Shown: one piece after another, positions 6,001 through 7,469 of the stretch
How positions within the stretch are numbered: the stretch's first letter is position 1
Layout of the letters: each line of letters opens with the position of its first letter
IMG/VR virus record: IMGVR_UViG_2541047174_000016
Direction: 5' to 3' (one strand)
Source of the DNA: a virus
Lineage: Duplodnaviria > Heunggongvirae > Uroviricota > Caudoviricetes
DNA length: 7,469 nt
Position numbers: made by a program

Positions 6001-7469
6001 CACACACAGAACACGGTTCATATCCCCCTCACCCCACCAGCCATGACAAAGTTAAGACGCGCCAGGCAGTGGAAAAGCAAATAGCAACCAGCATTAGTGA
6101 AAATGAAATGCCGACGATTACACAGAGGATCTTCGCCAGCGTTATGAGCTTGTCTGACATGCTTAATCCTCTTCACGATTTCAACGCAATGACCAGTTTT
6201 GCCAGCCCATACAGCATCGGAGACACAGCAATACCGACCGCCACCCACTTAATAGCAAAAGCCAGCGCTCTGCTGACGTCATCAGTTACAGGCGCTTTCA
6301 GTTCAAGGCCGTTTTTCATAGTCAATCTCAACAGAATTCGTTTATACTTTCCCATGTTCTCCCTTGCCTTACTCAAGGTCAGAAACACAAAACCCCGTTT
6401 GCGGCCAACAAACGGGGTTTTACTTTTATTCACTTAGTTTTTGCCAGTTCGCAGGATTTCGTGTTATCCGCCAGTGTGAGCAAACCGCATTTTTCAGCAA
6501 AATATTCTGCTTATCTGTCAATTCCCCAGCACGCCAGCGCGCTCTCCTGGTCACGCCGTGAAACCTGACCGTAGCAGTTGTTTGAGCGAATACGGCAGTC
6601 TCTGCCACCGTCCTTAATCCACCAGCGAATCGCCTCACACGCTCCCCTGCGATCGCCTGCATTAAGCCGCTTATAAAACGTCGACGGGAAACACTTACCG
6701 GGGCCAATGTTATAGGGGCAAAATGACGCGATACCTGCTTTTTGTGGCTCGGTCAGTGGAACTTTTATATTACGCTCCACCCATGCCAGCGCCTTATCCC
6801 GTTCGATAGCGTTAACCCGGTCGCATTTTTCCTTCGACAGCTTCATGCCAGGAATCACAGGCTTACCATCCACCCGGGTGGCTCCACGGCAGATGGTCCA
6901 GATACCCGCACCATCACGGTATGCCGTGGTGTGGTTACCTTCCTTTTCATCCAGAAACTGGTCGAGGATTTCAGGCGCAGAAGCACCTGCGGCAATCAGC
7001 GCCAGAACGGCAGCCGACAGGCCGTATCTGATTTTTGCGTTCATGGATATTTATCAGGGTTTATCGATTTCAAATCCCTGGATATGTTAAGTCTTCAGGC
7101 CAGCGGTGGAGTCTTCAGAGAACCCGTAATTATTCCCGGTAGTTTTCCTCTGTAGGTTATCAACACATCCTGCGCCTCTAAAATTACGGGACGCTTTTCC
7201 GGTAACGGACCATCCCCTTCACATAACCCGGCAGCAACATCCATGAAAAACTGCTTCGCCTGCTTTTTCGCCTCAGCTTCGTAAAACTCCAGCGTGGCAC
7301 CTTCAGTACGGTCAAGACTAATCGCCACATCTGGCAACAACAGTGACGGATACCCACCAATTTCCAGTGCCACAGTAACAGTAATCTTATCCGGGTAATT
7401 ATTTATCCCTTTAACAACCAGTTCGTATTTTTTCTTCATCACTTTACTCTCCCCGCGCCGCCTTACGCC

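Follow-up and report, generated by a model that had tools for sequence, protein, structure and literature searches.

In a lambdoid, Stx-phage-like prophage of Escherichia coli O157:H7, the interval that separates the lysozyme gene R from the spanin gene Rz raises a question of regulation: is the small membrane-protein gene lodged there controlled by an antisense RNA transcribed from within its own first codons? The stretch analysed, IMG/VR record IMGVR_UViG_2541047174_000016 (7,469 nucleotides (nt), hereafter the window), is the late region of the prophage, and carries every late gene on the minus strand. A 60-amino-acid (aa) open reading frame (ORF) at 6173..6355 of that strand (MGKYKRILLRLTMKNG...ALKS; WP_001303555.1; phrog_1115) is preceded by a GC-rich hairpin at 6389..6421, and the strand opposite to the ORF carries a promoter-like site directed toward the hairpin. 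A cis-antisense RNA covering the Shine-Dalgarno sequence of the ORF is plausible, and we hold this reading with somewhat less than even confidence. Whether or not such an RNA is made, two conclusions stand: hairpin, leader and ORF are transferred, as judged from their distribution among prophages, as one mobile unit, and 48 nt of this unit appear to be under constraint at the nucleotide level.

The notion of a mobile cassette derives from the comparison of the slots in which the ORF is found. The R-Rz interval is variable among relatives. In most of them (the window, H-19B, EH2201, Sakai Sp4 and the loci L008 and L061) the slot opens with the 3' end of R, which is conserved, and the hairpin, and the cargo that follows differs: the window carries the 60-aa ORF and a 43-aa ORF, H-19B and many Stx phages have a single ORF of ~45 aa from another PHROG family, and in Sakai Sp4 the 60-aa ORF is represented by a shortened homologue. 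In Sakai Sp9, Sp12 and Sp6 another intergenic region, which lacks the hairpin, occupies the slot; after it come ant, the anti-repressor gene, and an ORF homologous to the 43-aa one. Homologues of the 60-aa ORF reside mostly directly upstream of Rz, after at least four unrelated holin/endolysin sets, in which the holins are holin_2_3, holin_3_1, and holin_8 plus holin_3_7, and the endolysins Phage_lysozyme, Glyco_hydro_19 and Peptidase_M15_4. Two other late-region contexts have been identified in E. coli and Salmonella prophages, one after a tail-fibre assembly gene (L118), the other after a SASA esterase gene (L120, L122) near a prophage end. The hairpin is found upstream of every cassette copy, 60-100 nt before the ORF, and the order on the sense strand is A-rich tract, GC-rich hairpin, short leader with a Shine-Dalgarno sequence, small membrane-protein gene. 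In L118, L120, L122 and L208 a separate sense terminator of the upstream gene directly precedes the cassette hairpin, which argues that the hairpin belongs to the small-ORF cassette, and not to the upstream gene. No consistent sense promoter was found within the cassette by a consensus scan, which weak promoters could escape (best scores 2.5-7.4 bits, unaligned). Transcription of the 60-aa ORF must therefore come from upstream and pass the hairpin, as Q-modified polymerase is able to do, and the antisense unit would be the only autonomous transcription unit of the cassette.

The promoter-like site described in the first-pass annotation consists of a -35-like hexamer TAGTCA (4/6 matches, 6319..6324), an 18-nt spacer (6325-6342) and a -10-like hexamer TATACT (5/6 matches, 6343..6348) on the plus strand, and all the coordinates were verified. 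The -35 hexamer lies within codons 11-13 of the 60-aa ORF, and TATACT is the reverse complement of the Lys3-Tyr4 codons plus the first base of codon 5 (AAG TAT A). By position-weight scoring the site reaches 9.06 bits, and ranks 9 of the ~14,900 positions of the window. Since the background rate at this score is 7e-4 per position, a site of this quality is expected by chance in ~4-6% of usable stretches of 60-100 nt. The site acquires weight by comparison. A sigma-70 weight matrix was used to scan 18 cassette copies, each over ~300 nt. In 17 of the 18, L213 being the exception, the highest-scoring antisense promoter-like site occupies the same place in the alignment. The -10 TATACT is similarly retained in all but L122, which has TACACT. 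Four diverged copies outscore the 9.1 bits of the window: L124 (TTGTCA-18-TATACT, 13.0 bits), L118 (TTGGCC-16-TATACT, 11.7 bits), L122 (TTGTCA-18-TACACT, 11.7 bits) and Sakai Sp4 (TGGACA-18-TATACT, 11.5 bits). The background rate for scores of 11.5-13 is 9e-6 to 7e-5 per position; holding the -10 fixed, the probability of a -35 that good in the diverged lineages is 0.014-0.038, values which, given the shared ancestry of the lineages, are suggestive and not independent. The H-19B-type ORF, which occupies the same slot and belongs to a different PHROG family, also has an antisense promoter-like site (TCGAAT-17-TAAAAT, 10.0 bits), with an inferred start at its own start codon. Relatives of this ORF (80 loci at 98% identity) are too uniform for a test of conservation.

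Both hexamers fall in a near-invariant block of 48 nt, 6302..6349 in the alignment, which also holds the initiation region of an internal in-frame start, Met13 (ATG 6319-6317). When E. coli and Salmonella copies are compared, synonymous differences are found in 1 of the 15 shared codons of the block, and in ~15 of the 31 codons in the rest of the 60-aa ORF (Fisher p ~0.005).

The hairpin (13-bp stem with 6 G-C pairs, 7-nt loop; AAAACCCCGTTTGCGGCCAACAAACGGGGTTTT) is the top terminator-like site of the window. On the plus strand it is directly followed, after 6421, by ACTTTTATTCACT, and the T-rich tail, ACTTTTATT, is located as originally claimed. Tails are present on both sides (TTTTACTTTTATT on the plus, TTTTGTGTTTCTG on the minus strand). 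With a GC-rich stem and a U-rich tract on either strand, the hairpin thus reads, at the sequence level, as a bidirectional intrinsic terminator. The inner stem and the loop vary between copies. Every representative has a T-rich tail on the antisense side; that of the sense side is T-rich in E. coli types, and poor in L118, L122 and L124.

Placing the 5' end by the position of the -10, the predicted antisense RNA would be ~75 nt long (6355..6431, plus strand), and would include a 5' part complementary to the Shine-Dalgarno sequence, a weak stem-loop (6362-6366 pairing with 6374-6378), the terminator hairpin and a U-tail. A like layout is found in 11 representatives. The folding check gave -24.5 kcal/mol for a predicted 78-nt RNA, with a z-score of -3.7. 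The RNA had been thought to be complementary to both the Shine-Dalgarno sequence and the start codon of the ORF. The former part holds, as the Shine-Dalgarno AAGGGAG (6359..6365, minus strand), the proposed target, and the leader are fully complementary. The latter does not, because an RNA starting at ~6355 would cover at most the first base of the ATG (6355-6353). In a consensus fold of nine antisense RNAs the outer terminator stem is conserved, there is almost no informative covariation, and the 5' stem-loop is not clearly supported. The loop of this structure (6362-6378, plus strand), CCUUACU, contains the YUNR-type motif CUUA, kept in most relatives, and the sense leader has a complementary stem-loop partly covering its Shine-Dalgarno sequence; if folded as modelled, the two would allow loop-loop contact between antisense RNA and sense leader.

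According to the mechanism envisaged, a sigma-70-type promoter of moderate strength, located in codons 3-13 on the opposite strand, would drive the constitutive synthesis of the ~75-nt RNA, which would start at the start codon, cross the Shine-Dalgarno sequence and the leader, and end at the hairpin. In the lysogenic state, most of the read-through transcription would be stopped ahead of the gene by the sense face of the hairpin. The residual read-through message would pair perfectly with the antisense RNA, which would prevent translation of the small protein, and might also cause the message to be cleaved. In the lytic phase, polymerase modified by Q would ignore the terminator, the message would flood the antisense RNA, and the protein would be made late.

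Several observations weigh against this mechanism, and the evidence is accordingly mixed. The aligned promoter-like site, the constraint on the block, the antisense T-tail and the geometry of H-19B speak, if indirectly, for an antisense RNA; the lack of an expression record in the sources searched and the sense bias of the hairpin speak against it. The promoter match is indeed modest, as initially recognized (mismatch at position 2 of the -35, 18-nt spacer, no extended -10); promoter matches of the 9/12 class number 6 in the window versus 7.9 +/- 2.8 in shuffled sequences, and taken alone the match is at chance level. The -35 has only 3/6 matches in L213 (TAATCA) and L208 (TGTTCA). In 21 of 25 variants the sense (minus) strand forms the more stable hairpin, and common substitutions leave G-U pairs in the sense RNA where the antisense RNA has A-C mismatches. 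Judged by this bias, the hairpin is no less a sense-strand element, that is to say a terminator or insulator behind R. As for records of expression, the R-Rz interval is not represented among the 63 Hfq-bound EcOnc small RNA (sRNA) candidates reported in Sakai by Tree et al., nor is the Sakai Sp4 copy (NC_002695.2 ~1184730-1184870), despite its better promoter match; a list based on Hfq does not exclude an Hfq-independent RNA. Promoter and leader sequences were not found in the EDL933 transcription-start supplement, which is truncated and may contain no sequences. Rfam gave no match over the whole window at E<=1, and no paper on an RNA, or a function, for the R-Rz slot was found in the literature. 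A few named RNAs were considered as possible identities and discarded. Sub-threshold Rfam matches in a 191-nt sub-search (RefA9, rimP leader, ohsC and others; ohsC scored 20.1 bits versus a gathering score of 50) are all terminator-driven. HnrS (EcOnc10-12; 66 nt, late genes, multicopy) maps downstream of Rz and bears no obvious resemblance by eye, and EcOnc33 (~71 nt, Sp6), EcOnc35, EcOnc51 and EcOnc52 have coordinates elsewhere.

The main rival explanation dispenses with the antisense RNA altogether, and we regard it as a real possibility, although well below an even prospect. The hairpin, located after R, would serve as a sense terminator or insulator, or as a stem that stabilises the mRNA, and the small genes and Rz would need Q antitermination to be expressed. 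According to this view, the hexamers are a by-product of AT-rich early codons (Lys-Tyr-Lys) and of the Leu-Thr-Met codons, and have been conserved for other reasons. The 48-nt block is coding and carries the Met13 initiation region, which may account for part of its conservation, and recent recombination could be the source of the low synonymous divergence. The chance-level promoter, the weak -35 of L208 and L213, the sense-favoured hairpin with its T-rich sense tail in E. coli types, the internal Shine-Dalgarno sequence and Met13 kept in every lineage, and the lack of a published transcript in the sources searched all agree with this explanation. Yet, it leaves several features unaccounted for. 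The A-tract, which on the antisense side supplies the U-tail, is retained in every context, even where the upstream gene has a terminator of its own. The -35 is improved in the diverged copies. The Lys-Tyr codons, which are outside the Met13 initiation region, are synonymously identical. Finally, an ORF of a different PHROG family, that of H-19B, shows a like antisense geometry.

A second alternative is that the locus is a true hok/sok-type pair, in which the small protein would be a membrane toxin, translated from a stable mRNA of its own, and the antisense RNA an unstable antitoxin enforcing retention of the prophage. We consider this very unlikely, and the label of hok/sok-like type I toxin-antitoxin system given to the locus in the first-pass annotation is not supported. 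The likeness to hok/sok is in the combination of a gene for a small hydrophobic peptide with an antisense RNA predicted over its translation initiation region. The size and hydrophobicity expected of type I toxins (membrane peptides under ~60 aa) are found in the 60-aa ORF, whose hydrophobic segment is C-terminal, and the cassette is mobile and sometimes in tandem (L120). However, the ORF has no homology to Hok/Gef, Ldr, Ibs, TisB, ShoB, Zor or DinQ in Pfam and NCBIfam, and Rfam antitoxin families (Sok, OhsC, Sib, Rdl, IstR and others) gave no match. The consensus scan detected no autonomous toxin promoter in 17 of the 18 copies, and the ORF is embedded in Q-dependent late operons. The exception is the Salmonella copy L122, where a strong sense promoter-like site (TTGCGA-16-TATATT, 11.2 bits) overlaps the hairpin, ~58-86 nt upstream of the core ATG. 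Located outside a lysis cassette, L122 could represent a version of the gene that is expressed autonomously. The position of the ORF, mostly directly upstream of Rz in lysis cassettes, rather indicates a late lysis-accessory role.

A last hypothesis, that the plus-strand face of the hairpin ends antisense transcription coming from further downstream (bor read-through, or spurious promoters antisense to Rz), thereby shielding R and the holin gene with no need for a dedicated sRNA promoter, would accommodate bor on the plus strand, the promoter-like sites at 5076-5145, the weak hairpin 5584-5598 as the sole one after bor, and the usual location of bidirectional terminators, but is very unlikely, since the hairpin accompanies the small ORF into contexts which lack bor (DUF1353, other small ORFs or host genes being found downstream), and the source of antisense transcription should thus be inside the cassette.

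A cis-antisense RNA as the one proposed would have relatives by analogy. Short convergent sRNAs are known at module boundaries of the late regions of enterohaemorrhagic E. coli (EHEC), namely AsxR, AgvB and HnrS (PMC4104026; PMC13502914). This class is the nearest biological precedent. These RNAs are 51-66 nt long, terminator-ended and transcribed against the late operon, and HnrS is found just downstream of Rz in Sp9, Sp10 and Sp12. They differ from the RNA predicted here because they reside after Rz or stx, and not between R and a small ORF, have no sequence similarity to it, and act in trans; the RNA of the cassette is predicted to act in cis, and no Hfq crosslinking peak has been reported at the Sp4 copy.

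In its layout, the predicted unit is also reminiscent of SymR/symE. SymR of E. coli is a cis-antisense RNA, whose promoter lies just inside the coding region of its target. In either case the first codons of the target contain the antisense promoter, from which an RNA of ~75 nt, here predicted, extends over the start region and the Shine-Dalgarno sequence. The two systems are unrelated in sequence, and their targets differ, as symE encodes an SOS-induced RNA-cleaving protein, the cassette a small membrane protein within a phage late operon. The sar RNA of P22 (RF00262) is similarly a phage antisense RNA of ~68 nt, which covers a ribosome-binding site and has a GC-rich terminator end, and shares the inner terminator loop CUGUUACCGCAG with the L208 copy. 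The target of sar is in contrast the arc-ant intercistronic region, with the ant ribosome-binding site, in immI, and the target here is an ORF between R and Rz. The sar model has no match in the window; L208 was discarded as a sar homologue because it scores 30.8 bits versus a gathering score of 43, on the sense strand, the match being terminator-driven. L187 and L208 share the outer stem of the hairpin, and have inverted inner stem-loops (CTGCGGTAACAG versus CTGTTACCGCAG), one orientation of which matches the terminator loop of the sar model. The hairpins of L118 and L120 are near-mirror images as well. Bidirectional terminators are typically located between convergent transcription units. 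The cassette hairpin resembles them, having a GC-rich stem between an A-tract and a T-tract, and hence a U-tail on both strands, and differs in its location, which is the 5' boundary of a mobile cassette in an antiterminated operon, and not the space between convergent genes.

In O157:H7 chromosomes both WP_001303555.1, the 60-aa product, and WP_001280929.1, the 43-aa product, are annotated by PGAP as "hypothetical protein". The 60-aa ORF has a polar/basic N-terminal part and a hydrophobic C-terminal stretch, AFAIKWVAVGIAVSPMLYGLAKLVIAL, and is 48 aa long if Met13 is the start; it matches no Pfam or NCBIfam family, and no relatives were found among the scanned GTDB genome contigs. The small ORFs match only PHROG families of unknown function (phrog_1115, phrog_4493, phrog_3246). 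Met13 has its own Shine-Dalgarno-like sequence, GAGA/GAGG, which is kept in all lineages (GAGG/GGAGG in relatives), 6-9 nt before the codon, and two isoforms of 60 and 48 aa are therefore possible, judging from these signals. The 12 extra N-terminal residues ahead of Met13 are strongly basic (MGKYKRILLRLT). The dual start (6317-6355, minus strand) recalls the dual-start motifs of holin/antiholin genes, and a like layout, VFDFSKLIREIRV-M..., is found in the H-19B-type ORF.

Not all leaders are alike. A second type, found in L114 (Sakai Sp4), L129, L140, L205-L207, L210-L212 and L123/L124, carries an insertion of ~30 nt upstream of the small ORF, which forms a mini-hairpin (AGGGAGGTG..TTCCCT) sequestering a strong Shine-Dalgarno sequence. 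In these copies the start has moved to GTG or TTG, and the former ATG opens a short dead-end frame. In L120 (1356-1668) and L121 diverged small-ORF paralogues are found in tandem between the SASA esterase and the DUF1353 gene; the first still has the AAG TAT codons, with the hairpin upstream of it, and the second differs at its N-terminus.

The 43-aa ORF (6029..6160, minus strand; WP_001280929.1; phrog_4906) is a separate conserved membrane-protein gene, located directly upstream of Rz. It keeps this place where ant replaces the 60-aa ORF, its homologues residing downstream of ant in Sakai Sp9 (ECs_5722; L112 3327-3473), Sp12 and Sp6. Other fillers of the R-Rz slot end in ...RWW, with a stop codon overlapping the start of Rz. 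Two further frames, a plus-strand ORF of 122 aa (6069-6437) and an 86-aa GTG-start extension of the minus-strand ORF, were taken as spurious because both run through the hairpin.

Around the slot, the gene order is that of a late region. On the minus strand, the YdfR/DUF1327 gene (7442-7095) is followed by the lysozyme gene R (6511..7044; Phage_lysozyme, with a hydrophobic N-terminus), whose stop codon is ~90 nt upstream of the hairpin, and Rz (5557..6021), with the embedded Rz1 (5616-5801), marks the downstream edge of the variable slot. The bor gene (5232-5525) is on the plus strand. Three overlapping promoter-like sites, TGGACA-15-TACAAT, ATGACG-17-TACATT and CTGACA-16-AACAAT, are found upstream of it at 5076-5145, which fits with bor being expressed in lysogens and transcribed against the late operon; only the weak terminator-like hairpin already mentioned follows the gene. 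At the other end of the window, positions 1-269 match the end of an ISEc8 copy (IS66 family) annotated in Sakai (L114 9388-9656) with 100% identity. A portal ORF ends at 255, and the portal gene has thus apparently been cut by the insertion. The prophage is probably defective.

The cassette is widespread. The 501 nt from 6020 to 6520 are 100% identical to many O157:H7 chromosomes, and are covered for at least 80% in 990 of 5,426 complete E. coli genomes. In O157 genomes the hairpin and leader region is repeated, with up to 12 matching places in a single genome. Taken to its furthest consequence, the comparison would describe a self-contained mobile unit of a previously undescribed kind, in which a two-way terminator is combined with a cis-antisense RNA and a membrane protein with two starts (60/48 aa), and which would move between late-operon positions of enterobacterial prophages and silence a lysis-accessory or toxic peptide in lysogens; given the multiple copies, the RNA might also act across co-resident prophages. 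We consider this larger picture unlikely. If the antisense RNA is real, the lysis cassette would, in a very common type of prophage, acquire an added layer of cis-antisense control, two small membrane-protein genes beside the spanin genes would be tied to a silencing that makes them safe for the lysogen, and the class of convergent small RNAs of EHEC late regions would gain a new position.

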